Below are positions 16,548 through 50,886 of a stretch of 64,000 nt of DNA, in pieces. A program made the translations under genes and the position numbers. The DNA is from Gemmatimonadales bacterium. GTDB lineage: Bacteria > Gemmatimonadota > Gemmatimonadetes > Gemmatimonadales > GWC2-71-9. Position 1 is the first letter of the stretch; every line of letters begins with the position of its first letter. A model generated the notes under the pieces. It did not search any database and was not told the origin of the DNA. It worked only from the letters and a program-made list of their open reading frames with translations. The stretch spans positions 32,001 to 96,000 of the forward strand of contig JBFJCP010000001.1 in assembly GCA_041615815.1 (NCBI GenBank), given 5' to 3'.

Positions 16548-17299
16548 CCGAAGAGCGCCTCGCCGAACTCCTCCAGCAGGTCGCGAGCGGCGCCGTGCCC
16601 GCCCGTGCAGCCCTCGATCAACTACGTCGTTTTCCCGTGGAAGACCTCTCGTACGCCCAGATTGACCACGCGCGGTCGCTCATTCAAGGCTTTCCGGAGG
16701 TGGTGCTTTGCGATGGGAAGACCGTCGATCAGGTGGTGGGAATCTGCCAGGTGCTGGAGCGCTCCGGAGGGTCGTTTCTCGCCACGCGAGCGGGTCCACC
16801 CATCCAGGACGCGCTGCAGACAGCATTTCCAGCCGCAACGGTCAACGGGCTGGCGCGGACGGTCCATCTGGAGCCCGCCCCCGCTCCTGCGCCTACCGGT
16901 CGCGGAACCATCTTGGTGGTGAGTGCCGGGACCAGTGACCTGCCCGTGGCAGAAGAAGCGGTCGTCGTTGCTCGCGTCATGCGCAACGAGGTGTGTACGC
17001 TCTACGATGTGGGTGTCGCAGGCATTCACCGCCTGTTGCGGCAGACGGCGATGCTGGATCGAGCATCGGTGATCATCGTAGTAGCCGGCATGGACGGCGC
17101 ATTGGCGAGTGTTGTGGGAGGGATGGTGCGGGTACCAGTGATCGCGGTGCCCACGAGTGTGGGCTACGGCGCGGCGTTCGGGGGCGTATCCGCATTGTTG
17201 GCGATGCTCAATTCTTGTGCCTCGGGGATCACTGTCGTGAACATCGACAACGGATTCGGCGCAGCGGCGGCGGCGTCGCGAATCAACCACATGGGGTGA
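16544..17299 (+). CDS. larB: Nickel pincer cofactor biosynthesis protein LarB (PurE-like)
   Basis: GFPEVVLCDGKT, AGTSDLPVAEEA, DVGVAGIHRL, PTSVGYG, VVNIDNGFGA. Confidence 0.93.
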   Translation: MTEERLAELLQQVASGAVPARAALDQLRRFPVEDLSYAQIDHARSLIQGFPEVVLCDGKTVDQVVGICQVLERSGGSFLATRAGPPIQDALQTAFPAATVNGLARTVHLEPAPAPAPTGRGTILVVSAGTSDLPVAEEAVVVARVMRNEVCTLYDVGVAGIHRLLRQTAMLDRASVIIVVAGMDGALASVVGGMVRVPVIAVPTSVGYGAAFGGVSALLAMLNSCASGITVVNIDNGFGAAAAASRINHMG

Positions 17300-18732
17300 C
17301 TGGACTCCTCTGGCTCCTCGCGGGATTCCTCGGTGGCACCGGGACGACGCTCGCCGTGCGACGTTGGAAGTCACGTAGTGGGCGGATCACGCCGCCCCGT
17401 GAGTTTCCTGCCCATGCACCTCATGTGATCGACCTGCTGCGCCGCGCGCACGACGGGGCCGTCGCCTGCATTGTGCGCGCCGAAGCCGACCCGTTGGTGG
17501 CAAGACGAGAGGAACGCGCGGAGCCAGCGGTCGTCGAGCGGGTCGTGGCGGCGGCGAAGCTGGCGCTTGGCGATGGACGTGAGCACGTGCTTCGCAATGG
17601 GGACGTGGTCGTGGCGGTGGGCGACGGGGATTTGGGGGGCGCGCTCGGTTTCCCGAGCGCGGACGTGCATGCGGACCGCCTGCGGGCCGTGGGACGCGAA
17701 CTGCGACAACTGCTTGGCGAGCTCCGAGTCGGTAGGGCGGAACCCGGGGGCCTGCGAAGCGCGAATCGCCAAGTCTCGGATTGGTTGGCGGTGGCCCCCC
17801 ACACCGTGGCCGGCGTGGCGCACGCGCTGTGCGAAGCGGTGCAGGCCACCACCGGGCGCACGGCGGCCGTGGCGTTGCGAGATCAACTCACGCAAACCAC
17901 GATGGTCACAGCCGTGTCGCACGGGGGCGATCGGATGCTCTTTGGGCTCGCCGCCACCGCCGACTCGGCGGCGGGGCGCGCCTGTGCCGGGGATATCCCG
18001 GTGGTCGGCCCGACGTTACAGGACCTGTTCGGTCAGCGCCGGACCGATCGCCGAATGCGTCAAATGGGCGGCACGGCATTCCCGTTGCGTGACGGTCGCG
18101 AGGCGGTGGGGGCACTCGTGGTCTTCGGGATTGGGGCTGAGGGTCTCGATGCGGCCGTGATGGAGCGGCTCATGTGGCTCACCGTCGATGCCGGCCCTCG
18201 GCTCGCCAGCGCGCTGGCCGTCCGGGCCGCGGAGACCAAGGCGTTGACGGACGCGCTCACGGGCTTGCCCAATCGGCGAGCGTTGGACCACGCCATGGCC
18301 AAATGGGCCGGTGGCTCCGGCGCCTTACTGTGCGTCGACATCGATCATTTCAAGCAGTTCAACGATGGATACGGGCACGTCGCCGGGGACGCAGCCCTGA
18401 AACATGTGGCCCAGGTGTTCCGGCGCACCCTGCGGGAGCACGATCTTGCGGCCCGCGTCGGGGGCGAAGAGTTCGCGCTTTGGTTGCCCGACACTCCGCT
18501 CCACCGGGCCCTGGAGGTGGCCGAACGCGTGCGTCAACACGTGGCATCCGCGGCGCTGCACTGGAACGGCACGGACCTCAAAATCACGTGTTCGGTGGGT
18601 GTGGCGGCGATGCCGGACAGCGTGGCCCGACTCGAGAACCTCTACGGCGCGGCGGACGCAGCCCTCTATCAGGCGAAGCGAGGGGGACGAAACCGGGTCC
18701 AGGCGTCGCTCCGTCGCGGTGGTGCCAGTTGA
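17296..18732 (+). CDS. Diguanylate cyclase (N-terminal TM, GAF-like region, GGDEF)
   Basis: TDALTGLPNRR, DIDHFKQFNDGYGHVAGD, I-site REHD, GGEEF, ADAALYQAK; GTG 17296 overlaps the larB stop. Confidence 0.92.
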   Translation: MTGLLWLLAGFLGGTGTTLAVRRWKSRSGRITPPREFPAHAPHVIDLLRRAHDGAVACIVRAEADPLVARREERAEPAVVERVVAAAKLALGDGREHVLRNGDVVVAVGDGDLGGALGFPSADVHADRLRAVGRELRQLLGELRVGRAEPGGLRSANRQVSDWLAVAPHTVAGVAHALCEAVQATTGRTAAVALRDQLTQTTMVTAVSHGGDRMLFGLAATADSAAGRACAGDIPVVGPTLQDLFGQRRTDRRMRQMGGTAFPLRDGREAVGALVVFGIGAEGLDAAVMERLMWLTVDAGPRLASALAVRAAETKALTDALTGLPNRRALDHAMAKWAGGSGALLCVDIDHFKQFNDGYGHVAGDAALKHVAQVFRRTLREHDLAARVGGEEFALWLPDTPLHRALEVAERVRQHVASAALHWNGTDLKITCSVGVAAMPDSVARLENLYGAADAALYQAKRGGRNRVQASLRRGGAS

Positions 18733-18778: not shown

Positions 18779-19133
18779 GGGGGCGATTGGCTTCGACGGG
18801 TCTTGTGAGGATCCCGCAGCGTGCCCAGGTTCCCGGTTCCCTGGTGAAACCACTGGGAAAAACACACAACTGCCAACACTGAATTGGCTCTGGCTGCGTA
18901 AGCTTCGCGCTGCGCACCTGTTCGCGTGACTGCTCGCCCGAAGCGGGCCGCGGACATCGATAAGTCGGGCTAACGGACGGTGTCGCTTCCGCGCCGAACG
19001 TGAGCTGTCAGGAAGCTCATCCATCAGTTGGGCGGCTTCGCCCCTGCTGCTGGAGACATCAATGCGAAGCCTACGCACGTAGACGCGGTTTTGGATCGAG
19101 GTTCGGACCGGGGTTCGATTCCCCGCGCCTCCA
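18779..19133 (+). ncRNA. ssrA: tmRNA; tag reading frame (A)ANTELALAA* at 18872-18901
   Basis: GGGGGCG/CGCCTCC acceptor stem with G3-U wobble, 5' TTCGACGGG, T-arm GGGTTCGATTCCC, 355 nt long, tag ending LAA-stop. Confidence 0.97.
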
Positions 19134-19137
19134 TCAT

Positions 19138-35457: not shown

Positions 35458-36510
35458 ATGACCGCACCCCTGAGCCCCGCACTGCTCGAAGCGCTGCGCG
35501 CGTTGGCGGACGGCAAATCCCCGGGCGAGCACTGCACCGCGCAGGCATTTGCGGCCGTCATGCGTGGGGAGGCCGTCCCGTCACAAATCGGCGGGCTGCT
35601 CCTGGGCCTTCGCGCCAAGGGGGAAACCGAGGAGGAGGTGCGCGGCATCGTGCGCGCCCTCCGCGACGCCATGATCCGGGTCGCCGTTCCCGATCCGTCG
35701 CGGCTCATCGATACCTGTGGCACCGGTGGGGGCACGATCTCCACGTTCAACATCTCGACGGTGGCGGCGTTTGTCGCCGCGGCGGCGGGCGCCGTCGTGG
35801 CGAAGCACGGGAACCGCTCGTATACGTCGCGCTGCGGATCCGCCGATCTCTTGGAAGCGCTGGGTGTGCGCATCATCGTGGACGCCCAACAGGCAGCGGC
35901 GCTCTTGCGGGACCACCGATTGGCCTTCCTGTTCGCGCCCGCGTTTCATCCAGCGATGCGCTCGGTCACCCCGGTCCGAAGAGAACTTGGTGTCCCCACG
36001 ATCATGAATCTCGTTGGCCCCATGGCCAACCCCGCTGGAGCACGCCGACAAGTGCTGGGGGTCTGGGACGTGTCGCGCGCGCCACTCGTGGCCCGCGTGC
36101 TGGCCCGTCTCGACGCCGAGCACGTCCTGGTGGTGCACGCGCGGATTGGGATGGACGAGATCGCTCCGGTTGGGATCACGGATGCCTGGGAGGTACGGAA
36201 CGGAGCGGTGCGCCAGCTCACGATCGATCCGGCTACGCATGGACTGGTACGTGACGACGTGGGTTTGTTGGCGGGCGGCACACCGACGGACAACGCGCAA
36301 CGGGTGGTGCGCCTCCTGGAAAACCCGCGCTCCGACGAAGACGGGCGTGCGGCGGTGGGCCTCAACGCGGGGGCAGCAATCATGGTCTCCGGCGTCACCG
36401 AGACGATGGAGCGGGGCGTCGAGTTGGCGTTGGAAACGCTCGATACCGGTGCGGGAGCGGAGTGGCTCGAGCGGCTTCGGCACGCAGCGCCGGCTAGTAC
36501 TTCCGAATGA
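35458..36510 (+). CDS. trpD: Anthranilate phosphoribosyltransferase
   Basis: DTCGTGG, FNIST, KHGNRS, GSADLLEALG, HPAM, GMDEI. Confidence 0.96.
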   Translation: MTAPLSPALLEALRALADGKSPGEHCTAQAFAAVMRGEAVPSQIGGLLLGLRAKGETEEEVRGIVRALRDAMIRVAVPDPSRLIDTCGTGGGTISTFNISTVAAFVAAAAGAVVAKHGNRSYTSRCGSADLLEALGVRIIVDAQQAAALLRDHRLAFLFAPAFHPAMRSVTPVRRELGVPTIMNLVGPMANPAGARRQVLGVWDVSRAPLVARVLARLDAEHVLVVHARIGMDEIAPVGITDAWEVRNGAVRQLTIDPATHGLVRDDVGLLAGGTPTDNAQRVVRLLENPRSDEDGRAAVGLNAGAAIMVSGVTETMERGVELALETLDTGAGAEWLERLRHAAPASTSE

Positions 36511-37102
36511 CTCCCACGACGATGCCCTGAATCAGGATGTTGTCTTCGTGAACGCGAAGCGGCGGGACTCGATCGTTCGCCGGTTGTAACCGGATCCACC
36601 CACCCGGTTCGCGAAACAGCCGTTTGACGGTTGCGGATGTCCCGTCCACCAGGGCGATCACCATTTCGCCGTTGTCCGCCGCCTCCCGCCCCTGGACGAC
36701 CACGTAGTCACCGTCCTGAATGTGCTCGTCGATCATCGACTCGCCGCGAACCCGAAGCACGTACGCGTGGCCCCGGCGGGGAAGGAGGTCGTTGGGCACC
36801 GGGATCGTCTCGGGGACCGTGACGGCTTCGATGGGCTCGCCGGCGGCCACTTCGCCGAGTAACGGGAGTTCCGTAGCCCCAGACTGGCCGGGTGGCGGCA
36901 CCAGCTCGATGGACCGACTCTCGTTGTACCCCCGCCGGATATAGCCTTTTCGCTGCAGGTTCGTGAGGTGCTCGTGAACCGTCGCGAGCGAGGCGAAGGA
37001 GAAGTGCTCCGCGATCTCCTCGAACGACGGCGCAAAGCCGTGATCCTGGATGTAGTTTTGGAGGTAGTCCAAAATCTGTTTTTGGCGGCGGGTGAGCGGC
37101 AT
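36494..37102 (-). CDS. lexA: SOS repressor LexA
   Basis: LTRRQKQILD, PSFEEIA, VAAGEP cleavage site, GESM catalytic Ser, TVKR catalytic Lys. Confidence 0.97.
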   Translation of the reverse strand: MPLTRRQKQILDYLQNYIQDHGFAPSFEEIAEHFSFASLATVHEHLTNLQRKGYIRRGYNESRSIELVPPPGQSGATELPLLGEVAAGEPIEAVTVPETIPVPNDLLPRRGHAYVLRVRGESMIDEHIQDGDYVVVQGREAADNGEMVIALVDGTSATVKRLFREPGGWIRLQPANDRVPPLRVHEDNILIQGIVVGVIRKY

Positions 37103-37122
37103 ATCCAGCCCCCGTTCCGTGA

Positions 37123-37171
37123 CCGAAGGTATTCCGAAGCTCAACATACCCGAACACAGCCCGAAACGCAA
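37123..37171 (-). promoter_or_regulatory. lexA promoter (TTGCGT-N17-TATGTT) overlapped by two TTCGG-N6-TTCGG direct repeats, candidate SOS boxes
   Basis: CCGAA on the + strand at 37123, 37134, 37150 and 37161; -35 at 37166-37171, -10 at 37143-37148. Confidence 0.65.
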
Positions 37172-37179
37172 GGAGAGCT

Positions 37180-37971
37180 TTGTCCGCCTCGGTCCTCGAC
37201 GCGCTCCTTGACGCCGCGAATCGGACCGTCCGGGAGTTGCGCTCTCGGCGCGCAGTGATCGAAGCCGCGGCATTGAGCGCTCCCGTCCCGGTATCATGGC
37301 GGGGTGTGCTCGCCCCAGCCACGGTGGCTGTCGTCGCGGAGGTCAAACGCCGATCGCCATCGTCGGGCGCCATTGCCCCGTCGTTGGACGCCGCCGCACA
37401 GGCTCGGGCGTACCAGGCGGGCGGTGCGGGGGCGGTCTCCGTCCTCACGGAACACGAGCATTTTGGCGGCTCTATCAGGGACCTAGAGATCGTGCGATCG
37501 TCGGTCGGCATCCCGATTCTCCGAAAGGACTTCATTATCGACCCTGTCCAAGTGGCGGAGTCGCGAGCGACGGGTGCGAGCGCGGTCCTCCTGATCGTTC
37601 GGGCGCTGGATTCCCTGCAAATGACGGATCTGGCCGCCTGTGCGCGTGATTGGGGGCTCGGACGTTTGATCGAAGTCCACGACGAGCGGGAACTGGAGCT
37701 TGCCTTGCAGCTGGCACCGGAGTCGGTGGGCGTGAATTCTCGTGATTTGGCAACCCTCGAGGTGCATCGGGGAGTTCACGAGCGGGTCATCCCTCTGGTG
37801 CCCTCGGGCATCGCGGTCGTGGCTGAGAGCGGTCTGCGCGATCGCGCAGACGTGGAACGGGTGGCTGGCTGGGGCGCGGACGCGGTCCTGGTCGGGACCG
37901 CGGTGTCGGCCGCCAGCCACCCGGAGTCCGCGGTTCGGGCCCTGACCGGGGTCGAGCGTCATGGCCGCTGA
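37180..37971 (+). CDS. trpC: Indole-3-glycerol phosphate synthase
   Basis: [38 protein letters not shown] start with AAGGAG RBS. Confidence 0.96.
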
Positions 37972-39178
37972 CGTGCGCGCGGGCGAGGCGGCGAGCGTGA
38001 CGGCACCGCCCGTCCGGTTTGGCCGTTACGGCGGCCGCTATGTTCCCGAGACGCTGATGCCGGCTCTCGAGGAATTGGCCGCGGCTTACGACCGTCTCGC
38101 CGAGGACGCGGAGTTCCAGGGCGAACTCGCCAACCTCCTTGCCACGTATGCGGGCCGCCCGACGCCGCTTTCGGAGGCTCCGCGTTTGTCCGAGCGGGTG
38201 GGTCGGCGCGTGCTCCTCAAGCGCGAGGATTTGGCGCACACGGGTGCGCACAAGATCAACAACACGCTCGGCCAGGTCTTGCTGGCCCGGCGGATCGGCA
38301 AGCGCCGGATCATCGCCGAGACCGGGGCCGGTCAACACGGGGTCGCGACGGCGACGGCCTGTGCGCGATTGGGGTTGGAGTGTGTGGTGTACATGGGTGC
38401 CGAAGACATGGATCGGCAGCGGCTCAATGTCTTTCGGATGGAGCTGCTCGGGGCCACCGTCGTGCCAGTCACGTCTGGCACGCGCACGCTCAAAGATGCC
38501 ACGAACGAGGCCCTGCGGGATTGGGTCGCCAGCGTCCGCACCACGCACTACGTGATTGGATCCGTGGTGGGACCCGATCCATTTCCCCGCCTTGTGCGGG
38601 ATTTTCAGCGGGTCATCGGCCGCGAGACGCGGGACCAGGTCGTCCAACGTACGGGCCAGTTGCCAGCCGCCGTCATCGCCTGCGTGGGTGGCGGGTCGAA
38701 TGCGCTCGGGATCTTTACTGCGTTCCTGGACGATGCCGGGGTCGTGCTGGTCGGCGTGGAGGCTGCCGGATTCGGAACCGATACTGGCAAGCATGCGGCG
38801 TCGCTGAGCTGCGGACGGCCGGGGATTCTCCACGGTAGCTTGAGTTATCTCTTGCAGGACGCCGATGGGCAGGTGCGTGCGGCCCATTCGATTTCCGCGG
38901 GTCTTGACTACCCCGGCGTGGGTCCCGAACATGCGTACTTGCGTGACTCCGGCCGCGTCCGTTACGAGACAGTGACGGACACCGCAGCTCTGGAGGCGTT
39001 CTACACGCTCGCTCGACTGGAGGGCATTCTACCGGCGCTCGAAAGCGCCCACGCCGTGGCATGGCTTCTGGAGACTCGGACGCTTGAGCGGGCAGAGGGG
39101 GTCGTGGTGGTGAACCTGAGTGGCCGCGGCGACAAAGACGTGGCGCAGATCGCTGCTTTGAGAGGGAAGGCCGGGTGA
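37961..39178 (+). CDS. trpB: Tryptophan synthase beta chain
   Basis: [44 protein letters not shown]. Confidence 0.98.
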
Positions 39179-40851
39179 CCGAACCGACCACCGCAGATAC
39201 TGCTCCCGACACGGCGGCCGTCTCGAATCTGCTGCAGGTCTTTTCCAAGGGACTGCGGGCGATCCAGCTCTATCTCCCCAACAATCCCGTCTATCAGAAG
39301 TCGATCGAGAACATCCGCACGTCGTTTCCAGCGGTGTGGGAAGAGTGCGCCGAACTCGAGCTGGAGGTCACCGAGACCGACCTCCGGTGGGAGGACCAGG
39401 TCGTCTACTCGCAGCCCAAGACGGACAGTCTGGCGTGGGTCATGTACAAGGACGGCGTCCGCGTTCTCACCCTGATCCCGGGCGTGGAGGATGAGGAGAT
39501 CGTCCGATTCCTGCACGTGATCAATACCGCCAAGCATCTAGCACCGGAGTCCAACGACGACCTCCTGACGCTGCTGTGGGAAGAGAACTTCGAGACGGTC
39601 AAGTACGATTACGTGGACCTATCCGCGGTTGACGTACACCCCATCACCGAATCGGATGCCAAACCCGAGGCGCTCGCGGAGGACGTGCGCCGCGAGGTGG
39701 AGGAGGAGCCCCCGCCCGATCGACCTCCCGGTCTGGTGGACATCGACGAGTTTGACTCCACGCTCTACTTCTTGGAGCCAAAGGAAATCGATTACTTGAA
39801 GGGCGAGGTGGACCGCGAGTACGCGCAGAATCTCCGCGCCAACGTGCTCGCGATGTTGTTCGACCTCCTCGAGCTCCAGACGTACGCGACCGTTCGTGCC
39901 GAACTCATCTCCATCGTCGAGAACTTCATTCCGTACCTGCTGGCCGCCGGCGATTATCAGTCGGTCGCCTACGTGCTCCGAGAAATCCGCGTCGTCATGC
40001 AGCGGGCGAGGGAGCTGCTGGACGAGCATCGGGGCACGTTGGAGGAACTGCCCGCCAAGATCTCACAACCCGAGTCGTTGTCGCAGCTGCTGCAGTCGCT
40101 GGACGAAGCCCACGTGCATCCGACCGAGGAGGAGCTGGCTGACCTTTTCCGGGAATTGCGGCCGGACGCGTTGGCGACGCTCCTGTCGTGGCTGCCGAAG
40201 CTGACGAATCAACGGGTGCGGGAGCTCCTCTCGCACGCGACGCGGCGGCTGGGAAGTGCGCATCCCGATCTCCTGGCTGCGGCGGTCCGGTCCGACGATG
40301 AGGCCATAGCGCTGGAGGCGATTCGCGTCGTCGGCCACGTGAAGCTCCCGCCCGTCATTCCAGCCCTCGGTGAGGCGCTCGAGCGCGAAATCCCCGCGCT
40401 GCGGCGGGCCGCCGTCACGGCGTTGGCGGCGATCGGGTCGCCGGGAGCCTTGCGTCACCTGGAAGTGGCGGTGGAGGACAACGACCGCGATGTTCGGATC
40501 GGTGCCGTGCGGGCGTTTGCCAACCGCGGCTATCGCGGTGGGTTTGCAAAGATCGAGTCGGTGGTCCTCGGCTCCGGGCTGCGCGACGCGGATCTCACGG
40601 AAAAGACCGCCTTCTTCGAGGCGTACGGCAAACTCGCGGGGCCCGCGGGAATCGGGAGGCTGCAGTCGATGCTGCGTGCCCGGGGGGGATTCATGAAGCG
40701 AAAGGAAGATCCCGAGACTCGCGCGTGCGCGGCGATGGCGCTGGGCAAGATCCGCACGCCCGAGGCCCGGCAGATTCTCGAAGACGCCGCCGAGGACAAA
40801 GACCCGCTGGTCCGTAATGCCGTGAACCGAGCGATGCGGGAGATGGGCTGA
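39175..40851 (+). CDS. HEAT-repeat (PBS-lyase-like) protein with an uncharacterised N-terminal domain
   Basis: C-terminal repeats [48 protein letters not shown]-coupled to trpB. Confidence 0.85.
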
Positions 40852-40853
40852 GC

Positions 40854-42335
40854 ATGACATCGGATGCGGCCGGACGGGAATCCCGGACGACACTGACCGA
40901 TGCGGTGGGGACGGCGGCGAGCGTCTTGCGGCACGCTGGACGCAGCTTCCTGGTGTCGTTCTACGCCGCCCTTCGAAGCCTCAAGCTCTACCCCGTCGAA
41001 AACGACCAGGTCCAGCGCGCCCTAGATGACCTGGCGACCTCGGGTCGGCAACTCCTGGATCTCGAAGACGAGCTCGAGGTCCGCATCGCCGGGGAGTTCA
41101 TCTTCGTCAACTCCACCCGCCTCCGGCTCGATCTGGACAACTACGCCTCTTTCAGCCACGTCCTCACGACCTTGCGCCAATGCGACATTGGTGTGCTCCG
41201 CGTCGATGATCGGATGGAGCGACGTGAGTGGCAGGTCTTGATCTCGCTGTTGCTGACATTCGCCGCGCGCGATACCGATCCCAACAAACTGTTCGAGCTC
41301 CAGCAGAAGCTCCTGCAGGGCGGGGTCACGCACGTCGTCGTCGAGCCCCAGGCAGAAAGTGAAGAGGACACGCAGGACGAGGAGAAACAGAAGGAGATTG
41401 CGAAGCGAACCTACGAGCGCTCCGTTGCCGTGACCAAGGAGGTCATCAATAGCGTGCGGATGGGGCGGACCGCGAGCGTCCGAAAGGTGAAACGCGCGGT
41501 GCAGGGCATCGTCGATCAGGTGCTGAAAAACGAGGTATCCCTCATTGGACTGACGACGATCCGAGACTACGACGAGTACACATTCACGCACTCGGTGAAC
41601 GTCTGCATTTTCAGTGTTTCCATCGGGAAACGGATTGGGCTTTCAAAGCTGCAGCTGTACGACTTGGGACTCGCGGCCCTGTTTCACGACGTGGGGAAAA
41701 GCCGGGTACCGATCGAGATTCTCAGCAAAGAAGGAGCTTTGACCGACGAAGAGTGGCGGATCATGCAGGCCCACCCGTGGCTGGGTGTGCTCACCCTGTT
41801 TGGACTGCGCGGATACGGGGAGATTCCCTATCGCGCCATGATCGCGGCGTACGAACATCACATGAAGGTGGATCTCACAGGATATCCGAAATCCGTGCGC
41901 GCGCGGAACCTGTCGGTCTTTTCCAAGATCGTCGCCGTCGCCGACGCGTTCGACGCCGCGACCACCCGTCGCAGTTATCAGACCGTGCCGCTGCAGCCCG
42001 ACGAAGTGCTCCGCGAGATGTGGGAGAATCCGCGCCGGGGCTTCGACCCCGTGGTGGTCAAAGCGTTGATCAATCTCGTGGGCGTGTATCCTGTGGGGAC
42101 CTGTGTGATTCTCGATACCTACGAGTTGGCCGTGGTGCACGCAGCCAACTCGGATGTCTCCCAGCTGCACCGCCCGGTGGTCCGCGTGATCAGTACTCCC
42201 GAGGGCGGCATGTTGCGCCCCGGGGTCGTCACCGAGTTGTCGGAGCGCACCGCCGATGGCGGGTTCAAACGCTCCATCGTGAAGGTGACCGACCCGGCAA
42301 AATACGGCATCAACCCCGGCGACTACTTTGTCTGA
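40854..42335 (+). CDS. HD-GYP cyclic-dinucleotide phosphodiesterase
   Basis: YTFTHSVNV, LFHDVGK, HP, EHH..TGYP, VADAFDA..RSYQ. Confidence 0.93.
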   Translation: MTSDAAGRESRTTLTDAVGTAASVLRHAGRSFLVSFYAALRSLKLYPVENDQVQRALDDLATSGRQLLDLEDELEVRIAGEFIFVNSTRLRLDLDNYASFSHVLTTLRQCDIGVLRVDDRMERREWQVLISLLLTFAARDTDPNKLFELQQKLLQGGVTHVVVEPQAESEEDTQDEEKQKEIAKRTYERSVAVTKEVINSVRMGRTASVRKVKRAVQGIVDQVLKNEVSLIGLTTIRDYDEYTFTHSVNVCIFSVSIGKRIGLSKLQLYDLGLAALFHDVGKSRVPIEILSKEGALTDEEWRIMQAHPWLGVLTLFGLRGYGEIPYRAMIAAYEHHMKVDLTGYPKSVRARNLSVFSKIVAVADAFDAATTRRSYQTVPLQPDEVLREMWENPRRGFDPVVVKALINLVGVYPVGTCVILDTYELAVVHAANSDVSQLHRPVVRVISTPEGGMLRPGVVTELSERTADGGFKRSIVKVTDPAKYGINPGDYFV

Positions 42336-43134
42336 CGCGTCACTCGAGGCGTGCTGGACGCGCCTCCGCCACACCCGCCGCCCTGCACTCATTCCTTACC
42401 TCACTGCTGGCTTCCCCTCGCCTGACGCATCGCGGGAGGCCTTGGCCATGGTGGCCGAGGCGGGAGCGGACGTCGTGGAGCTGGGCATGCCGTTCAGCGA
42501 TCCGGTGGCGGACGGTCCGGTGATCCAACGCGCCAACCAACAGGCACTCGACGCGGGCATGTCGATCGAGAAAACGCTCGCCATGGTGCAATCCGGCTCA
42601 AGCGACATCCCGATCGTCCTGTTTGGCTATGTAAACCCGATCCTGGCGTATGGACTCGCCCGCTTCGTCGAGGACGCCGCGGCAGCCGGCGCGGCGGGCC
42701 TGCTCGTGACGGATCTCCCCGCAGGAGCGGACGCGGAGATGGAGCAAACGCTCGACGCTCCCTCGCTGCCCCTGATTCGTCTGATCGCCCCCACCACGGA
42801 CGACGCTCGGTGCGCGCGCATCCTGCAGGGCGCCCGCGGCTTTGTCTACGTCATCGCGCGGTTGGGCGTCACCGGTGCGCGGACGGTCGTGGGTGACGAT
42901 CTAACGGAGATCGTGGCCCGCGTCCGGCGAGCCACACCCTTGCCGCTTGCCGTTGGGTTTGGGCTGCGGGATGCCGCCCAGGCCGCGGCGGTGGCCCAAG
43001 TGGCCGACGGCGTCGTGGTCGGGAGCGCCCTGCTCGAACGTCTGGCCGTGAGCATACCGGATGCCCACGCGTTTCTCGCGGAGCTGCGCGCCGCGCTTGA
43101 CGGGGTGTCACCCAGCCGGCGAGGTGCGGCATGA
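42328..43134 (+). CDS. trpA: Tryptophan synthase alpha chain
   Basis: [45 protein letters not shown]. Confidence 0.97.
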
Positions 43135-45227
43135 CGGCAAGGGTGGCACTGACGATGACGTTCTCGCGAGCACTCGTGTACATCGGGGCCACGCTGTTCA
43201 TCCTCGTCTTGGCGGTCGATCAAGCGTGGCTCGGGGAGTGGCAGGGGTTGCTCGTGCTGGCGCTTGCGGCGGTACCACTGCGCGCGTTTCACCTCGGGAT
43301 CGGCAAGTACTCCTACGCCACCCAGGTGGGCATCGCGTTGTTGGCGGGCGCGATCTTGTTCGGGCCGGGAACGACCGCGCTCGGCATGGCGCTCGGGCTC
43401 TTTCTCACGGACTGGATCTGGTTCCGCAAGGACCCGCGCGCCGCTCTCGTCAACGCCGCCCGCGAGGTGGTAGCGCTCGTTACGGCGTACGGATTCTATG
43501 CGGCAGCTCTCCGGATATCGGGTGTCAGTGGTCCTCGAGCGTACGAATCGATCTTCGCCATCACCCTGTTCGGGCTCAGCTACTTCGTCGTTTCCCGGAG
43601 CCTCTTCTACTACACGCTCATCGTCCGCAACAAGCTGCCACCCGATGAGCGGCTCTTCGTGCTACGCTACGAAGTCGTGGCGTACGGGATCACGCTGGTT
43701 GGTGCCGGGGTGGCCGTGCTCACCGTCGTCTCCCTGCCGCCCATTAGTTGGCCCTTCGTGGCAGTCCCCGTGCTGTTCAGCGGTTCGATCATCAAGCGGA
43801 TCCTCGAAGAGGCAATTCAGGCGGAAGAGCTCAACAAACTCCAGACGATGGAGCTCCTGATCACCAGCAACGTGAGCCTGGACCAGGCGCTCCACGGTAT
43901 CGAAGAGCTCGCCCATCAAATCCTGGACTGGCGTGACTACCGCGTGTACCGACGGACCACGGCGGGGTTCACCCTGCTCTATCGGGGTGACATGGGGACG
44001 TCGGACGACGACGCCCCCGGGGTGTTCGCGACGCTCCGGGAAGAAGCGTTTCACCAGCGGCAAACGCTCACGGTGCAGGATGCCGAGCGCGACGCGCGTA
44101 CGGTGGGCCTCCTGGGCTATGTCAAAAGCCTGGTGATCGTACCGCTGGTCTTCGGCGAGGAATTGATCGGAACGCTCGAACTGGATCATCACAAGCGCCG
44201 GCAATACGGTCGCCGCCAGCTCAGCCTCGTCGAAACGTGCGCCCGGCGCATTGCCACCGCCATTCACATCCACGACTTGCGCAAGCCGTTGCTGGATACG
44301 GTCGCGCGTATCAACCAGCAGGTTGCCACCCTGGGAACGCTGGCCGATGACCTCCGGACGGCGGCCGAAACGATGACCGGATCCATCGAGGCCATCGGTA
44401 CCGGACTCTCCCAGCAGGACCGCGAGGTCGTCAGTGGCCTGGAAGCGACCGGGGAGCTGAGCTCCGCCACCGAACGGGTCTCCCAGGACAGCGGTGACGC
44501 CGCCAAGGCCAGCGGAACCGCCAGTGATCTCGCGGAACGCCACCGGCAGACCATTGGAGGGGCCATCGAGCGCCTGATCACCCTCAAGACGTTTGTGGCG
44601 GAGAGCTCGGAGAAAGTGGGAGAACTCGGCACCGCCAGCCGACGGATCGTGAGGTTCCTCGCCTCCATCCGTGAGCTGGCCGACCTGACCCATTTGCTCG
44701 CGTTGAACGCCGCCATCGAGGCTGCCCGCGCCGGCACGCACGGGCGAGGATTTGCCGAAGTCGCCCGTGAGGTCCGAAGCTTGGCAGAGCAGAGCGTGTC
44801 CACGGCCGACGAAGCGGCGCAACTCGTCGAAGACATGCAGGACCGCCTGGGCGAAGTGGTCGAGCAGATGCGCCGCGGCCAGGTGGCGGTGGGCGGAGTC
44901 GAAGAACTCAGTACCGAAGGCCTGCAGGCACTCGAGACCATCACCAAGGCCACCGTGGAAGCGACCGAGCATGTCCGCCGCATTACGGAAACGGCGGAGC
45001 GACAGCACCATGTGTTCGCGCGGCTGCGCGAGCGCATCAACGGGTTCGCCGACATCTCCTCGCGCAACCGCAAGGACGCCGACACCGTGCTCGAGCGCGC
45101 CAAGGACGTGGCTTCGGGCGTCGAGGACATGGGGCGCGCCGCCCGGGAACTCAACGCGATCGCCGTCATGCTCTCCCAGATCACCGAGCAGGTGGCATCC
45201 GTCGACGGCCCCACGCCAGACCTTTGA
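43131..45227 (+). CDS. Methyl-accepting chemotaxis-like receptor with a multi-TM N-terminus and a GAF domain
   Basis: About 7-8 hydrophobic segments; GAF ([17 protein letters not shown]); hairpin tip [30 protein letters not shown]. Confidence 0.88.
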
Positions 45228-45258
45228 CTCCATTCGGCGACGTCGATACCGTACCACC

Positions 45259-45636
45259 GTGACCACCAACGACTGTATTACCCTGCGCGGCATGCGGTTT
45301 CACACCTGCGTCGGCTTGTTGCCACACGAGAAGTCGGTACCGCAACCACTGGATGTGGACCTCACCGTGTGGTTGTCGCTCCGACAGGTCGGGGAGACCG
45401 ACTCACCCCGCAGCCTCTTGGACTACCGCGACCTGTACGCCCTCGTCGCAGACACGGTCGGAACCAGCCATCACCGGCTCCTGGAAGCGCTGTGCGAGAA
45501 GATCGCGGGACGGGCGCTGGAGCTGGATCGCGTGGAACGGGTGCGGATCGCCGCGCGAAAGCCCCACGCCCCCATCCACGGGTTGCTGGATTACGTGGAG
45601 GTGGTGCTGGAGCGGGGCCGCGATGGTTCGGCGTGA
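45259..45636 (+). CDS. folB: Dihydroneopterin aldolase
   Basis: DCITLRGMRF..VG..EK..Q, LDY, LLEALCE, KPHAPI; GTG 45259 start. Confidence 0.92.
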   Translation: MTTNDCITLRGMRFHTCVGLLPHEKSVPQPLDVDLTVWLSLRQVGETDSPRSLLDYRDLYALVADTVGTSHHRLLEALCEKIAGRALELDRVERVRIAARKPHAPIHGLLDYVEVVLERGRDGSA

Positions 45637-46039
45637 GGATGCGTTCATCGCCCTGGGATCGAACGTGGGAGATCGCGAACGCCATCTGGCCCATGGTCGG
45701 GGTCGCCTGGCTGCCCTCCCCATGACGGAGGTGGCGGCGGTCAGCACGATCGAAGAAACCGAACCCATCGGTCCGGCCCAGCCGAGCTACCTGAACCAAA
45801 TGGTGCTGATCCGCACGGGACTGACCCCGCGGGTCTTACTCTCGGCCTGTCAGGCCATCGAGCGCGCGGCTGGGCGGACGCGAGACCGCCGCTGGGGACC
45901 GCGTACGCTCGACCTCGACATCGTGCGCTACGGAGACGTAGCCGTCAGCGAGCCGGACCTGACGATCCCTCATCCGGAGCTGCCGCACCGCCCGTTTTGG
46001 CAACGCGAGCTCGCAGAGCTCGAGGGACGGCTCCGGTGA
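45623..46039 (+). CDS. folK: 2-amino-4-hydroxy-6-hydroxymethyldihydropteridine diphosphokinase
   Basis: FIALGSNVG, YLN, RWGPRTLDLDI, LTIPHP. Confidence 0.95.
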   Translation: MVRREDAFIALGSNVGDRERHLAHGRGRLAALPMTEVAAVSTIEETEPIGPAQPSYLNQMVLIRTGLTPRVLLSACQAIERAAGRTRDRRWGPRTLDLDIVRYGDVAVSEPDLTIPHPELPHRPFWQRELAELEGRLR

Positions 46040-46602
46040 CGGCCACCCTCCCACCGTGGGCCCATGTCACTGCACCGCGCGTGGCACACATTCATCGGGT
46101 GACGGCGCTGCTGGAGGAGTGGGCACAGGCACTCGGTGTGGACGCGGGCGAGCGCGAGCGGTGGCTCCGCGCCGCCATCCTCCACGACGCGCTCAAAGAT
46201 GCCACACCCACGCTCCTGCGTGACATCGCACCCGACGCGTGGGACAACGACGCCCTGCGCCACGGTCCCGCCGCGGCGGTCATGGCGGCGCGACACGGCG
46301 AGACCGACCGCGGCGTGCTGGATGCCGTTCGCTATCATTCGGTCGGATTCGCCGGCTGGGACGACACCGGCCGGCTCCTCTACCTGGCCGATTATCTGGA
46401 GCCCGGCCGGCCCGACGAGGGTCACCGACGCCGCTGGGCCCGGGAGGTTACCGGCGACGTAGCGGGCTCCGTTCAGCGAGTGGCGCGGGCCAGGATCCAG
46501 CGCTCCGTCGCGCAGGGATTGCCACTGCTGGCCGAGACCGTGACGTTCTGGAATGCGCTGGTATGCGCCGCCCCACCCTCCTCGCGACACTCGCGCTCGT
46601 AG
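46036..46602 (+). CDS. YqeK-like HD-domain phosphohydrolase
   Basis: H..RV, AILHDALK, LRHGPAAA, VRYHSVG, LYLADYLEPGR. Confidence 0.85.
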   Translation: MTATLPPWAHVTAPRVAHIHRVTALLEEWAQALGVDAGERERWLRAAILHDALKDATPTLLRDIAPDAWDNDALRHGPAAAVMAARHGETDRGVLDAVRYHSVGFAGWDDTGRLLYLADYLEPGRPDEGHRRRWAREVTGDVAGSVQRVARARIQRSVAQGLPLLAETVTFWNALVCAAPPSSRHSRS

Positions 46603-46970
46603 CACTCGGGGCGTTCTTGGGCGCCGCGCTCGTGCTGCGGGGTCGGGAGTCCAGCCTTCCCATCCCCGGGGAGCGCCATCGCTTCGCCGTCGAGGTGCTG
46701 AATGGCACGAGCGTCGATGGGCTGGCTCGAGAAACCACCCGGCGACTCAGGCGCGCCGGGATCGACGTGGTCTACTTTGGGGACGCGTCCGAGGATGCTG
46801 CCCGGACGACGCGAATTCTGATTCGGCGGGGCGACTCGAGCGCCGCGGTGGTCGTGCGCGACGTCCTGGGCACCGGAGACATCATCTCCGCACCAAACGC
46901 ACGACTCCTAGTCGACGTGTCGGTGATCCTGGGTCGCGACCTCGCGCCTGGCGTCGATCTCGATCCGTAG
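46563..46970 (+). CDS. LytR C-terminal domain protein with an N-terminal membrane anchor
   Basis: VEVLNGTSVDGLA, DVSVILGRD. Confidence 0.85.
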   Translation: MRRPTLLATLALVALGAFLGAALVLRGRESSLPIPGERHRFAVEVLNGTSVDGLARETTRRLRRAGIDVVYFGDASEDAARTTRILIRRGDSSAAVVVRDVLGTGDIISAPNARLLVDVSVILGRDLAPGVDLDP

Positions 46971-47969
46971 CTGTCCACACGCCGCGCTGATGTCGAGGCC
47001 GCGGCTCCGACGCACCGTCGCGGCGACCCCCCGTTTGCCGAGGTGCTGGGCAAATCGCTGAATGGCCTCAGGCGGCGTCGCCTCGAGTCCCGGAGCGCCC
47101 CCAGGGTGAAGCGGCAAGAGATTCACGTGGGCGCTGAGCGGCCGCGCCAGTGTGGCGAGGCGCTCTGCGTGGTCCAACCCATCGTTCACTCCGCGAATCA
47201 TCACGTACTCCAAGGTCACGCGGCGTCGGAAGGACCTCACCGCGTCCATGACGTCTCGAAGGGCGTACTTGGTCTCGATGGGCATGAGACGCGCCCTCGT
47301 CGCGCTGTCGGCGGCGTGCAAGGAGACGGCCAACCGAAACTGTTCCGGCCGCTGCGCCAGTTTGGCGAGGTTGGGAACGATGCCAATGGTGCTGACCGTG
47401 ATGTGACGGGCACCGATCCCGAGGCCCTCGGGATCGTTCAGAATCGTCAGCGCGCGATCCACGTTGTTCCAATTGTGCAGCGGCTCACCCATGCCCATGA
47501 ACACCACGTGCGACGGTCGCATGGGCTCGGCGCAGAGCAGGAGCTCCCGGACCTGAGCCGCGATCTCCCATGCCTCGAGGTGCCGCCGGAATCCCATCCT
47601 GCCCGTTGCGCAGAACGTGCATCCGTAGGCGCAGCCCGCTTGGGAGGAAACGCACAACGTTCGACGCTTTCCGTCCGGGATCAGTACCGATTCCACAGCC
47701 TCGCCGTCGCCAAAGCCCCAGAGAAATTTGATCGTGCCGTCCTCGGACACCTGACGGGACACGAGCTGGGGTCGAGGGAGCGGAGCCGTGGTCTCGAGGG
47801 CATCGCGCAGTCGCGCGGGCAGCTCGGTCGCCGCCGCCCACGCCGTCACCGGCTGGCGCCACAGCCGGCGATGGATCTGGCGCGCCCGATACGCAGCCTC
47901 CCCGCGATCCGCCACCCACGGCGCCAGAGCTTCGAGGGCATCGGACGGGGTCAAATCCAGCAAGTTCAT
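46908..47969 (-). CDS. rlmN: 23S rRNA/tRNA adenine C2-methyltransferase RlmN
   Basis: CVSSQAGCAYGCTFC, MGMGEP, SLHA, RGLDISAACGQL; 63-bp convergent overlap with the LytR_C gene. Confidence 0.96.
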   Translation of the reverse strand: MNLLDLTPSDALEALAPWVADRGEAAYRARQIHRRLWRQPVTAWAAATELPARLRDALETTAPLPRPQLVSRQVSEDGTIKFLWGFGDGEAVESVLIPDGKRRTLCVSSQAGCAYGCTFCATGRMGFRRHLEAWEIAAQVRELLLCAEPMRPSHVVFMGMGEPLHNWNNVDRALTILNDPEGLGIGARHITVSTIGIVPNLAKLAQRPEQFRLAVSLHAADSATRARLMPIETKYALRDVMDAVRSFRRRVTLEYVMIRGVNDGLDHAERLATLARPLSAHVNLLPLHPGGAPGLEATPPEAIQRFAQHLGKRGVAATVRRSRGLDISAACGQLRIEIDARREVATQDHRHVD

Positions 47970-49110: not shown

Positions 49111-50886
49111 GTGGCCGCGACGGCGATGCGTACGCACCGCTGTGGGGCTCTCCGGGCGTCCCACGTCGGCGCCACCGTCCGATTGGGCGGGTGGGTGCAC
49201 CGCATACGGAATCTGGGCGGGCTCGTCTTCTTCGACCTCCGCGACCGCGAGGGCATCGTACAAGTGGCGTTTGGCCCGGACTGGGCCACCGCCGCGGTGC
49301 TCGCCCAGGCTGGTGACGTCAGCCCCGAATCCGTCGTGGTGGTGCAAGGGGTGGTGCAGGCTCGGCCTGCCGACGCGCGCAACCCGGAGATGAAGACGGG
49401 GGAGGTCGAGGTGCGGGCATCCACGCTCGACGTGGTGGGGCCAGCTGAGCCTGCGGCATTGCCCATCCCGGTGTGGCGGGCCAAGGGTGAGGACCTACCG
49501 GCGGAGGAGCATCGGCTCGAGCATCGCCATTTGGACCTCAGGCGTCCGGAACTGCAGCGCAACTTCGAGCTCCGACACCGCCTCTTGCAGCGGGCTCGGC
49601 ACGCACTCAGCGCCCTCGACTTCTTCGAGGTCGAAACGCCGATCCTGACCAAGCCGACGCCGGAAGGCGCCCGGGATTACCTCGTGCCGTCGCGGGTCCA
49701 CCGCGGACAGTTTTACGCGCTTCCCCAGTCGCCCCAGATCTACAAGCAGATTCTCATGATGTCGGGGTTCGACCGATATTTTCAGATTGCGCGATGCTTT
49801 CGGGATGAAGACTTGCGAGCGGATCGGCAGCCAGAGTTCACGCAGATCGATCTCGAGGCGTCGTTCGTGACGTGCGACGACGTGTATCACGTGATCGAAG
49901 CGGTGTTCGTGCATCTGTGGGACGAGGCGGGTCACACCATTGCGGCGCCGTTCGAACGCCTCTCGTACCGCGACGCGATGGAGCGCTTTGGCACCGACAA
50001 GCCCGATCTCCGTTTTCCCCTCGAGCTCGAGGACCTCGGCGACGTGCTGGGTGGGAGAGGCTTTCGGGCGTTTGATGCCGTGCTTGGCGATGGCGGCCGG
50101 GTACGCGGCCTCAAGGTTCCCGGGGGCGCGGGGCTCTCACGAAAGGAGATCGATACCCTTACGGCGGCGGCGAAGGCGGCCGGCGCCGGCGGACTCGCCA
50201 CGCTCAAGCGCAAGGGCGAGGCTCTGTCAGGACCGCTTGCGAGTCTCGACGGCATGAGTGCCGAGCTGGTGGGTCTCGAAGATGGGGCGCTCCTCCTCGC
50301 CACGGCGGGTGCCGACGCCGTCACTTCGGCGGCGCTCGATCGTGTGCGCCTCGCTGTCATTCGGCGTCTGCGCCTGCCCCCGAGCCGCTCCCATGCATTT
50401 TGCTGGATCGCGGACTTCCCTCTGTTCGAGCACGACGCCGCAGCGGGCCAATGGATGTTCGCGCACCATCCGTTCACCGCGCCGCATCCAGACGATGTCA
50501 CCCGTGTGCTGCAGGGGGATGTGGAGGGGGTGCGGGCGCTGCACTACGACCTGGTGTACAACGGCAACGAGCTGGGAAGCGGGTCGATCCGGATCACCAA
50601 CGCGGACCTGCAGTTGCACATCTTGGGGCTTCTCGGGATGCCGGAGGCCGACGCCCATCGACGGTTCGGTTTTCTCCTCCGCGCGCTCCGGGCTGGCGCC
50701 CCCCCGCATGGCGGCTTCGCGGTGGGATTTGATCGTGTCGCGATGCTGCTGGCGGGCGCCTCGAGCCTGCGGGACGTCATCGCCTTTCCCAAGACGACCG
50801 CGGCCCGCGCGCTGTTCGAGGATGCGCCGGCACCGCTGGATCCCGCGGAACTTCGCGAGCTCGCGCTCAGGGTCGACGCGTCGTGA
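49111..50886 (+). CDS. aspS: Aspartate--tRNA ligase
   Basis: RTHRCG, TPEGARDYLVPSR, LPQSPQ, FRDEDLRADRQPEF, PPHGG, DVIAFPKT. Confidence 0.97.
   Translation: MAATAMRTHRCGALRASHVGATVRLGGWVHRIRNLGGLVFFDLRDREGIVQVAFGPDWATAAVLAQAGDVSPESVVVVQGVVQARPADARNPEMKTGEVEVRASTLDVVGPAEPAALPIPVWRAKGEDLPAEEHRLEHRHLDLRRPELQRNFELRHRLLQRARHALSALDFFEVETPILTKPTPEGARDYLVPSRVHRGQFYALPQSPQIYKQILMMSGFDRYFQIARCFRDEDLRADRQPEFTQIDLEASFVTCDDVYHVIEAVFVHLWDEAGHTIAAPFERLSYRDAMERFGTDKPDLRFPLELEDLGDVLGGRGFRAFDAVLGDGGRVRGLKVPGGAGLSRKEIDTLTAAAKAAGAGGLATLKRKGEALSGPLASLDGMSAELVGLEDGALLLATAGADAVTSAALDRVRLAVIRRLRLPPSRSHAFCWIADFPLFEHDAAAGQWMFAHHPFTAPHPDDVTRVLQGDVEGVRALHYDLVYNGNELGSGSIRITNADLQLHILGLLGMPEADAHRRFGFLLRALRAGAPPHGGFAVGFDRVAMLLAGASSLRDVIAFPKTTAARALFEDAPAPLDPAELRELALRVDAS

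Follow-up and report, generated by a model that had tools for sequence, protein, structure and literature searches.

Housekeeping signaling by cGAMP (3',3'-cyclic GMP-AMP) in bacteria is so far known mainly from Deltaproteobacteria-type lineages with Hypr GGDEF proteins and from Vibrio, and the Gemmatimonadota form a phylum that is common in soil and of which few isolates have been studied. Here we analyze a 64,000-nucleotide stretch from a Gemmatimonadales bacterium (GenBank assembly GCA_041615815.1, contig JBFJCP010000001.1, positions 32,001 to 96,000 of the forward strand; hereafter, the window), which encodes a 493-aa HD-GYP protein with an RxxQ variant of the base-recognition motif and, directly upstream of it, a HEAT-repeat protein. 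We conclude with moderate confidence that the HD-GYP protein is a catalytically competent two-metal cyclic-dinucleotide phosphodiesterase and the catalytic subunit of a module with the HEAT protein.

Among the described HD-GYP proteins, PmxA (MXAN_2061) of Myxococcus xanthus and the GAPs Bd2325 and Gmet_3476 likewise keep the Arg of the base-recognition motif within an Rxx(Q/N) arrangement, the Gln of PmxA lying at the position of PmGH K317. PmxA degrades cGAMP and hardly any cyclic di-GMP (c-di-GMP), the Q518R substitution reverses this preference, and a screen of six Rxx(Q/N) enzymes found five that degraded cGAMP (three apparently selective and two cleaving both nucleotides) and one that was inactive, with Bd2325 confirmed in vitro (10.1101/600031). 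The proposal that Rx(x)Q/N HD-GYPs are cGAMP phosphodiesterases (10.1101/600031; repeated in 10.1101/2021.11.05.467447) agrees with the rule given in a preliminary description of this DNA, namely that Gln or Asn in place of Arg or Lys marks a preference for cGAMP, as in PmxA; the RxxQ class itself is already published, with Rxx(Q/N) reported in 539 of 11,504 aligned HD-GYP domains (4.69%; 343 with Q and 196 with N) from 215 species (10.1101/600031). Deletion of pmxA raises cGAMP and not c-di-GMP in vivo, and PmxA also cleaves c-di-GMP in vitro (PMC8844925); an RxxS enzyme still cleaves c-di-GMP (Galperin and Chou, 10.1101/2021.11.05.467447). Given the outcome of the screen (3/6 selective, 2/6 dual, 1/6 inactive) and the activity of the RxxS enzyme, the Rxx(Q/N) signature is a published predictor of moderate strength, imperfect and not decisive. 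What is apparently new in the present case is that an RxxQ variant combines another architecture with a HEAT partner that seems to be obligatory, in a phylum that is not linked to cGAMP in the literature searched.

The HD-GYP gene and its parts are as follows:

40854..42335, plus strand: HD-GYP phosphodiesterase gene, 493 aa (open reading frame, Pfam HD_5, PDB matches, AlphaFold2 (AF2) model, Foldseek)
40854..41357, plus strand: N-terminal domain, residues 1-168, with the element order alpha-alpha-beta-beta-beta-alpha-beta-alpha-alpha-beta and without a Pfam family (AF2 model)
41562..42080, plus strand: HD-GYP catalytic domain, residues 237-409, including K292 (Pfam, alignment to PDB structures, family alignment)
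41970..41981, plus strand: RSYQ, an RxxQ variant of the RxY[K/R] base-recognition motif (R373 and Q376; codons cgc agt tat cag)
42081..42332, plus strand: C-terminal beta-strand domain, residues 410-493 (strands 417-479 in the AF2 model, family conservation)

The reading frame has a coding-type composition (GC3 0.80 vs GC2 0.40), and the overlying minus-strand open reading frames (41022-41591 and 41643-42392) failed the coding-composition filter. The protein matches the Pfam families HD_5 (PF13487; residues 237-401, E 1.4e-20) and HD (PF01966; E 2.2e-11), and its sole NCBIfam match, which is sub-threshold, is to a response-regulator c-di-GMP phosphodiesterase model. The metal ligands are read in DEYTFTHSVNV (H246), FHDVGK (H278 and D279), AHPW (H307), EHHMKVDLTGYP, which holds H335 and H336 along with G343-Y344-P345, and ADAFDAATTRRSYQ, which holds D364 together with R373 and Q376. 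All of the metal-binding motifs that the preliminary description had reported as intact (HSVNV, HD, HH, GYP and AD), as well as its RSYQ (at 41970-41981), are found in this frame.

A search of solved structures (HMMER/phmmer) retrieved V-cGAP3 (5z7c, 7e-26) and PmGH (4mcw, 5e-21), along with DvhD (9rbz and 9rc0), PA4781 (4r8z) and Bd1817 (3tm8), and the seven ligands, H246, H278, D279, H307, H335, H336 and D364, align to the ligands of PmGH. The all-alpha HD-GYP fold was confirmed by a Foldseek search with the AF2 model, which matched 4mcw, 9rbz, 3tm8 and 4r8z with a probability of 1.00; PmGH was the best structural match (2e-7), accompanied by DvhD, Bd1817 (340 columns, template modelling scores 0.33/0.50) and PA4781, with weaker matches to PgpH and V-cGAP3. 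Neither the fold nor the GYP motif is disrupted, and all seven metal ligands and the base-recognition Arg are in place. PmGH of Persephonella marina (4MCW/4MDZ) shares the fold and the ligands but has a GAF N-terminal domain, a trinuclear site that includes E185, and RxxK, where the window protein has Tyr242 and RxxQ. The best sequence match among the solved structures, V-cGAP3 (VCA0931, 5Z7C), is cGAMP-degrading by its deposited name; unlike the window protein, it keeps RxxR and has tandem HD-GYP domains and, for this reason, the likeness between the two proteins says nothing on specificity.

In the HMMER alignments, ADAFDAATTRRSYQ pairs without gaps with SDVFDALTSDRPYK of PmGH (4mcw), ADIFDALSAERPYR of V-cGAP3 (5z7c), ANAFCAMVRPRSYR of DvhD (9rbz) and ADRYDELTSRHAYR of PA4781 (4r8z), and the pattern opposite it in each printed structure alignment is xDxFDALxxxRxY(K/R). 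The window protein, with R-S-Y-Q, does not match the RxY[K/R] guanine-recognition motif: Arg and Tyr are retained and the fourth residue is Gln. The chain index of 4mcw equals the published PmGH numbering plus 6, as checked at E185 (chain 191) and at K235/G237 of the KPG motif (chain 241/243), landmarks that are named in the Galperin and Chou preprint (10.1101/2021.11.05.467447). Because the alignment is gap-free and the numbering offset was checked, R373/Q376 correspond to R314/K317 of PmGH, which Wright et al. equate with R515/Q518 of PmxA (10.1101/600031); the equivalence between the window protein and PmxA rests on the PmGH numbering and that statement. The alignment to PmGH, named as a check on the motif register in the preliminary description, thus puts the Gln at the specificity position, residue for residue.

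Replacement of Lys or Arg by Gln would remove a positively charged hydrogen-bond donor, so that base recognition may be relaxed or shifted; the pocket would accept adenine at the Gua1 site, making 3',3'-cGAMP a good substrate, at least equal to c-di-GMP. Y242 pairs with E185, the third-metal Glu of PmGH, so that no Glu or Asp is present at this position, and Tyr is found there in 107 of 117 family representatives (defined below). Hydrolysis of a 3',3'-cyclic dinucleotide would probably end at the linear dinucleotide because the third-metal ligand is missing. Most HD-GYPs in which Tyr occupies the E185 position are unable to cleave pGpG further (10.1101/2021.11.05.467447), and PmxA, in contrast to the window protein with its missing third-metal acid, yields mononucleotides (10.1101/600031).

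The AF2 model (127-row alignment; mean predicted local distance difference test score (pLDDT) 92, predicted template modelling score 0.73) consists of four parts, namely an N-terminal alpha/beta domain (approximately residues 14-165), two long helices (170-233), the HD-GYP domain (242-409) and a small beta domain (417-479). The Bd1817 family (DUF3391-HD-GYP; PA4108, VC2497 and BB_0374) likewise combines a cytoplasmic alpha/beta N-terminal domain, long helices and HD-GYP, but the window N-terminal domain has two extra leading helices, and its match to DUF3391 (PF11871) is sub-threshold (E 0.0022-0.006, 17.5-18.9 bits vs a cut-off of 27.8) and spans only profile positions 90-135, over the helix that follows the N-terminal domain. 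Furthermore, the C-terminal beta domain is an addition to the two-part DUF3391-HD-GYP architecture (10.1101/2021.11.05.467447), and Bd1817 is degenerate whereas the window protein is not. In this beta domain, conservation among 127 sequences reaches 90% or more at G410, P413, G415, L420, V428, P441 and L462, and no Pfam family was found for it at E values up to 1; a PilZ-like reading was considered and dropped, given that no RxxxR/DxSxxG motifs were seen by eye and there was no Pfam match. PmxA is a Cache-transmembrane-HAMP-HD-GYP protein (10.1101/600031); the window protein differs from it in being soluble, in having an N-terminal domain unrelated to that of PmxA and in carrying the extra C-terminal beta domain.

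An exhaustive HMMER search of 1.84 billion cluster representatives yielded 98,757 proteins at E<=1e-3 and 2,543 at E<=1e-30, and the 150 matches listed include 116 full-length look-alikes, 440-530 residues long, with identity down to about 29%; these 116, together with the window protein, constitute the family of 117 representatives. The ligands are conserved almost throughout this family (H246 in 117, H278 in 115, D279 in 116, H307 in 116, H335 in 115, H336 in 114 and D364 in 111), as is GYP (G343 in 116, Y344 in 112 and P345 in 115). The window protein is a member of a distinct, large and poorly described subfamily of the two-metal type that consists of the N-terminal domain, HD-GYP and the C-terminal beta domain.

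Within Gemmatimonadota, the protein is strongly conserved. The best 120 matches in a set of 5.8 billion proteins are 70-100% identical to it, and those that carry a name are assigned to Gemmatimonadota, Gemmatimonadales or Gemmatimonadetes. Of these 120, 119 were matched by a motif search, and in the 118 displayed (those covered by the 20 commonest motif patterns) the last motif residue is Q in 114 cases and K in 4. At least 564 stretches in species-representative genomes encode an HD-GYP relative. The locus counts given here refer to the best 80 of these stretches, all from metagenome-assembled genomes of Gemmatimonadota belonging to different species, retrieved with an alignment of closer relatives as the query; the closest encodes a protein 90% identical to the window HD-GYP. 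In the tblastn alignments, residue 376 is Q in 76 of the 80 loci, K in 2, H in 1 and T in 1, and the prevalence of Q implies that this residue is under selection. The seven metal ligands are intact in 78 loci; the two divergent orthologs (one of them L069) carry D364N, R373P and Y242Q together and appear to be degenerate, possibly non-catalytic copies. Over the 80 loci, the median identity to the window copies is 74% for TrpB, 70-71% for HD-GYP, 68% for LexA, 63% for an RlmN-like protein, 58% for TrpD, 56% for the HEAT protein, 55-56% for TrpA, 52-53% for TrpC and 47% for the GAF-MCP protein. Conservation close to that of TrpB is unusual for a signaling phosphodiesterase and argues for a constrained, probably multi-partner role. 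Vertical inheritance of the HD-GYP/HEAT module throughout Gemmatimonadota, which forms part of the explanation that we favor, seems somewhat better than an even prospect.

The other component of the putative module is encoded immediately upstream:

39175..40851, plus strand: HEAT-repeat partner gene, 558 aa (Pfam HEAT_2 1.2e-23, AF2 model, Foldseek)

The two genes invariably adjoin each other, overlapping or nearly so; the gap between them is 2 nt in the window, and the HEAT gene lies immediately 5' of the HD-GYP gene in 77 of the 77 loci with upstream DNA, a count that includes L018, L074 and L077, where odd scoring resulted only from a split HEAT match. Homologs of the HEAT protein in Gemmatimonadota are 55-78% identical. 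Its AF2 model (pLDDT 82) comprises an N-terminal domain, a stretch that is disordered in the monomer (residues 152-200) and helical repeats, and Foldseek retrieved only HEAT, armadillo and alphaRep folds. A single-sequence BLASTP comparison of the HD-GYP and HEAT proteins reached an E value of only 0.016, and hhalign of the two families gave a probability of 87.8% (E 3.3e-6), with the confident part covering residues 31-135 of HD-GYP and 18-118 of HEAT; the first 150 residues of the HEAT protein have the same element order as the HD-GYP N-terminal domain (two helices, three strands, helix, strand, two helices, strand). By this profile and model comparison, the N-terminal domains of the two proteins are homologous over about 110-150 residues, a region without a Pfam family.

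Prediction of a complex between the HD-GYP protein and residues 1-360 of the HEAT protein gave a score of 0.79, compared with 0.00 for the best of 3 controls. This mark is reached by 116 of 157 solved complexes and by 2 of 215 mismatched pairs, counts that are approximate since custom alignments were used. At least 74% of the contacts agree between runs, and the partner pLDDT is at least 79. The predicted contacts connect HEAT residues 125-254, a span that takes in the linker left disordered by the monomer model, with the HD-GYP helices 184-217, residues 309-358 (including those right after GYP) and 400-411 of the catalytic domain, and residues 419-493 of the C-terminal domain; R373, Q376, K292 and both N-terminal domains lie outside the confident contacts. 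Pairing via the shared N-terminal domains was considered as well and rejected, the confident contacts being those of HD-GYP 184-493 with HEAT 125-254. The prediction supports binding of the HEAT protein to the HD-GYP catalytic domain; we know of no solved complex of this kind. RpfG-type HD-GYP proteins bind partner proteins through the GYP region. The contact predicted here is RpfG-like in that it includes residues 345-352, directly after GYP; unlike the RpfG type, the window protein lacks a REC domain and has a HEAT-repeat protein, not a GGDEF protein, as its partner. The HEAT protein would thus sit beside the GYP loop, bound to the catalytic and C-terminal domains, and would modulate or localize the activity, and the N-terminal domain common to both proteins might receive a common input.

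No description of an HD-GYP/HEAT-repeat pair was found in the literature searched, as judged by title and abstract, and the strings 'HEAT' and 'Gemmatimon' are absent from the Galperin and Chou survey (10.1101/2021.11.05.467447). Whatever the substrate, the constant pairing with a HEAT protein that shares the N-terminal domain, and the strong predicted complex, are apparently undescribed in that literature, and the pair offers a concrete model for the regulation of HD-GYP enzymes by partner proteins. In two single sequences, P0392 (866 aa) and P0393 (934 aa), a HEAT-like part is followed by an HD-GYP-like part, as in the gene pair; they may be read-through or gene-calling artefacts and were not counted as evidence, being single sequences, one of them with a low-complexity joint and a lost ligand. 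Look-alikes of both the HD-GYP and the HEAT proteins appear to be present in Acidobacteriota, Myxococcota, Nitrospirota and Thermodesulfobacteriota; we treat these as leads only.

The predicted partner would also fit the alternative that the HD-GYP protein has no catalytic role and acts as a nucleotide receptor or scaffold, with the HEAT protein relaying its signal, similarly to the degenerate Bd1817 and DvhD. HD-GYP domains can indeed serve as c-di-GMP receptors, DvhD being an example (PMC13090378), and the HHE and DG consensus residues are altered in the window protein, but neither the seven ligands nor the GYP Tyr has been lost, all of them being conserved, and loss of ligands is seen in only 2 of the 80 orthologs, which makes this alternative very improbable. 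In favoring a catalytically competent phosphodiesterase with an RxxQ pocket and a HEAT partner, we nevertheless recognize several observations that weigh on the other side. The HHExxDGxGYP consensus reads HHMKVDLTGYP, with E replaced by M and G by L (the residue after HH is L, M or I, not E, across the 117 family representatives, and Leu is the commonest residue at the altered Gly of 'DG', in 59 of 117), and the KPG motif reads KEG. Position 376 in the 117 representatives is R in 55, Q in 29, N in 6, S in 5, H in 5, K in 4, T in 3 and I in 3 (the eight commonest residues displayed), and K, H or T in 4 of the 80 Gemmatimonadota orthologs and K in 4 of the 118 close homologs displayed imply that Q376 is not indispensable. 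The Q-type enzymes in print are selective in only part of the cases (10.1101/600031). The shared N-terminal domains are not part of the predicted interface, the complex score is a model confidence rather than a measurement, and catalytic activity is itself a prediction.

The nature of the substrate is a separate question, for which the diguanylate cyclase encoded in the window is relevant:

16993..18732, plus strand: canonical GGDEF diguanylate cyclase (GHVAGD, RxxD I-site, GGEEF), start codon uncertain (GGDEF 1.2e-42)

The Asp of GHVAGD lies 24 residues before GGEEF, the spacing of D344 to G368 in PleD; PleD matches this protein at 9e-27. The claim in the preliminary description that the GGDEF protein of the window keeps the canonical guanine-binding Asp is borne out by these motifs and their spacing. 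Going by its sequence, c-di-GMP is certainly made in this organism, because the protein keeps the Asp, the RxxD I-site and GGEEF. Directly 3' of the GGDEF gene lies a transfer-messenger RNA gene (18779-19136, plus strand; RF00023, 150.6 bits), which was the only match in the window at Rfam gathering thresholds; neither a cGAMP nor a c-di-GMP riboswitch was detected there. No cGAMP synthase was found in the 64-kb window, where the sole GGDEF is canonical, and no GGDEF gene in the flanks of the 80 related loci.

Position 376 is unusually labile in this subfamily: it flips within several close clusters in an average-linkage clustering on identity (unrooted and without support values). One view would be that of an ordinary c-di-GMP phosphodiesterase, in which the fourth motif residue is not a strict determinant and Gln is tolerated. 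The variation among R, Q, N, S, H, K, T and I and the K, H and T variants among the orthologs are compatible with this view, as are the annotation of the orthologs at source as c-di-GMP phosphodiesterase class II, the canonical diguanylate cyclase in the same window, cleavage of c-di-GMP by the DUF3391-type enzymes PA4108, VC2497 and BB_0374 and by the RxxS enzyme (10.1101/2021.11.05.467447), and the in vitro activity of PmxA on c-di-GMP (PMC8844925). However, a neutral residue should drift in Gemmatimonadota as it does in the wider family, whereas Q is found in 95% of the species, and the PmxA mutation shows that this residue controls preference (10.1101/600031). We hold this view tentatively, just short of an even prospect.

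The view of the preliminary description was that the protein is a candidate cGAMP phosphodiesterase; in its full form, a dedicated 3',3'-cGAMP phosphodiesterase would belong to a phylum-wide pathway, with a synthase (a Hypr-type GGDEF or a CD-NTase) elsewhere in the genome. The intact metal site and the Gln at the specificity position, with the RxxQ register confirmed by alignment, stand in its favor, along with the swap of preference in PmxA by Q518R, the three of six selective Rxx(Q/N) enzymes and the confirmed Bd2325 (10.1101/600031), and the rise of cGAMP upon pmxA deletion (PMC8844925), and retention of Q by 76 of 80 species speaks for the importance of this residue. On the other side, a synthase is not known, nor was one found, the GGDEF of the window being canonical and the 80 flanks containing none, and no riboswitch for either nucleotide was detected in the window. 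In addition, two of the six signature enzymes screened cleave both nucleotides (10.1101/600031), position 376 is labile, with K, H and T variants among the orthologs, the architecture is unlike that of PmxA, and the literature searched, judged by title and abstract, contains no relevant paper linking Gemmatimonadota with cGAMP. The cGAMP assignment is a fair hypothesis and not the best-supported statement, and we consider a dedicated cGAMP enzyme to be doubtful.

Taken by substrate, c-di-GMP is the tentative first choice, cGAMP is a less likely one, action on both or on another dinucleotide is slightly less likely again, and the absence of any enzymatic activity is highly improbable. A combined scenario would hold that an HD-GYP/HEAT module of ancient origin, working as a complex of an eraser with a non-guanine-specific RxxQ pocket and a HEAT partner that shares the sensor domain, is inherited vertically in Gemmatimonadota and perhaps in Acidobacteriota, Myxococcota, Nitrospirota and Thermodesulfobacteriota, that its substrate is cGAMP or another dinucleotide distinct from c-di-GMP, made by an unrecognized synthase, and that its placement between trpB and trpA ties expression to tryptophan supply; as a whole, this scenario is rather unlikely. 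Should the cGAMP hypothesis be true, a phylum-wide eraser with a cGAMP signature, conserved like a core enzyme, would imply an unrecognized synthase and pathway in Gemmatimonadota.

The window is a chromosomal stretch of 65.5% G+C with housekeeping genes, in which the module lies in the gene order trpD, lexA (minus strand) and then, on the plus strand, trpC-trpB-HEAT-HD-GYP-trpA-GAF/MCP, MCP denoting a methyl-accepting chemotaxis protein:

37180..37971, plus strand: trpC, which starts the co-directional run, divergent from lexA (IGPS 8e-70)
37961..39178, plus strand: trpB (PALP 1.2e-43)
42328..43134, plus strand: trpA, TTG start (Trp_syntA 1.7e-82)
43131..45227, plus strand: membrane protein with GAF and MCP-signal domains (MCPsignal 9e-29, GAF 3e-10)

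The genes are tightly packed: the HEAT gene begins with GTG at the trpB stop, an overlap of 4 nt (GTGA), the end of the HD-GYP gene overlaps the trpA start by 8 nt, and the ATG of the GAF/MCP gene overlaps the trpA stop by 4 nt. The GAF/MCP protein has a hydrophobic N-terminal region of about 250 residues followed by GAF and the MCP signaling domain, and a match covering at least 70% of it is encoded downstream in 55 of the 80 loci (37-79% identity). The trp cluster of the window lacks trpE, trpG and trpF, and a transaldolase and an HtrA-type protease are encoded upstream of trpD on the opposite strand. A scan of 36400-47000 found no promoter-like sites and, as to terminators, nothing convincing (2 weak terminator-like sites vs 5.4 expected), and is uninformative. 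The lexA gene (36494-37297, minus strand) lies between trpD and trpC, with its 3' end overlapping the end of trpD; the long open reading frame probably starts about 65 codons downstream, at MPLTRRQK, and the position of lexA is retained in nearly all related loci.

The order trpB-HEAT-HD-GYP-trpA is found in 63 of the 80 loci, and trpB and trpA are 3.2 kb apart in the window (37961-43134). In eight loci (L003, L033, L043, L044, L046, L049, L054 and L079), the pair is located between lexA and folB/folK or GAF/MCP, without trp genes; in L062 and L066, which are incomplete, GAF/MCP rather than trpA follows the HD-GYP gene, and L057 represents another context. Thus, at least 10 loci have no trpA after the HD-GYP gene, and the HEAT neighbor is always retained. 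Because the HEAT neighbor is constant where trpA is not, the functional unit is HEAT plus HD-GYP, not trp. The placement inside the trp operon noted in the preliminary description therefore applies to the window and to 63 of the 80 loci but is dispensable. The location between trpB and trpA would make HD-GYP expression follow the trp operon in most species; a normally coupled trpB-trpA pair split by two signaling genes is also apparently undescribed in the literature searched.

Two further genes of the window deserve mention. A protein of the PgpH type, with 7TMR-HDED, 7TM and HD domains, is encoded at 51755-54043, after PhoH (50883-51836); the PgpH structure (PDB 4s1b) was among the fold matches of the HD-GYP model. 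PgpH is a phosphodiesterase of cyclic di-AMP in Listeria, and from this gene the organism may also use that nucleotide. Finally, the gene at 61521-62786 (plus strand), located between the gene for the large subunit of methylmalonyl-CoA mutase and that for the B12-binding subunit of this enzyme, encodes a baeRF family 10 domain (bacterial archaeo-eukaryotic release-factor-like; E 2e-14).

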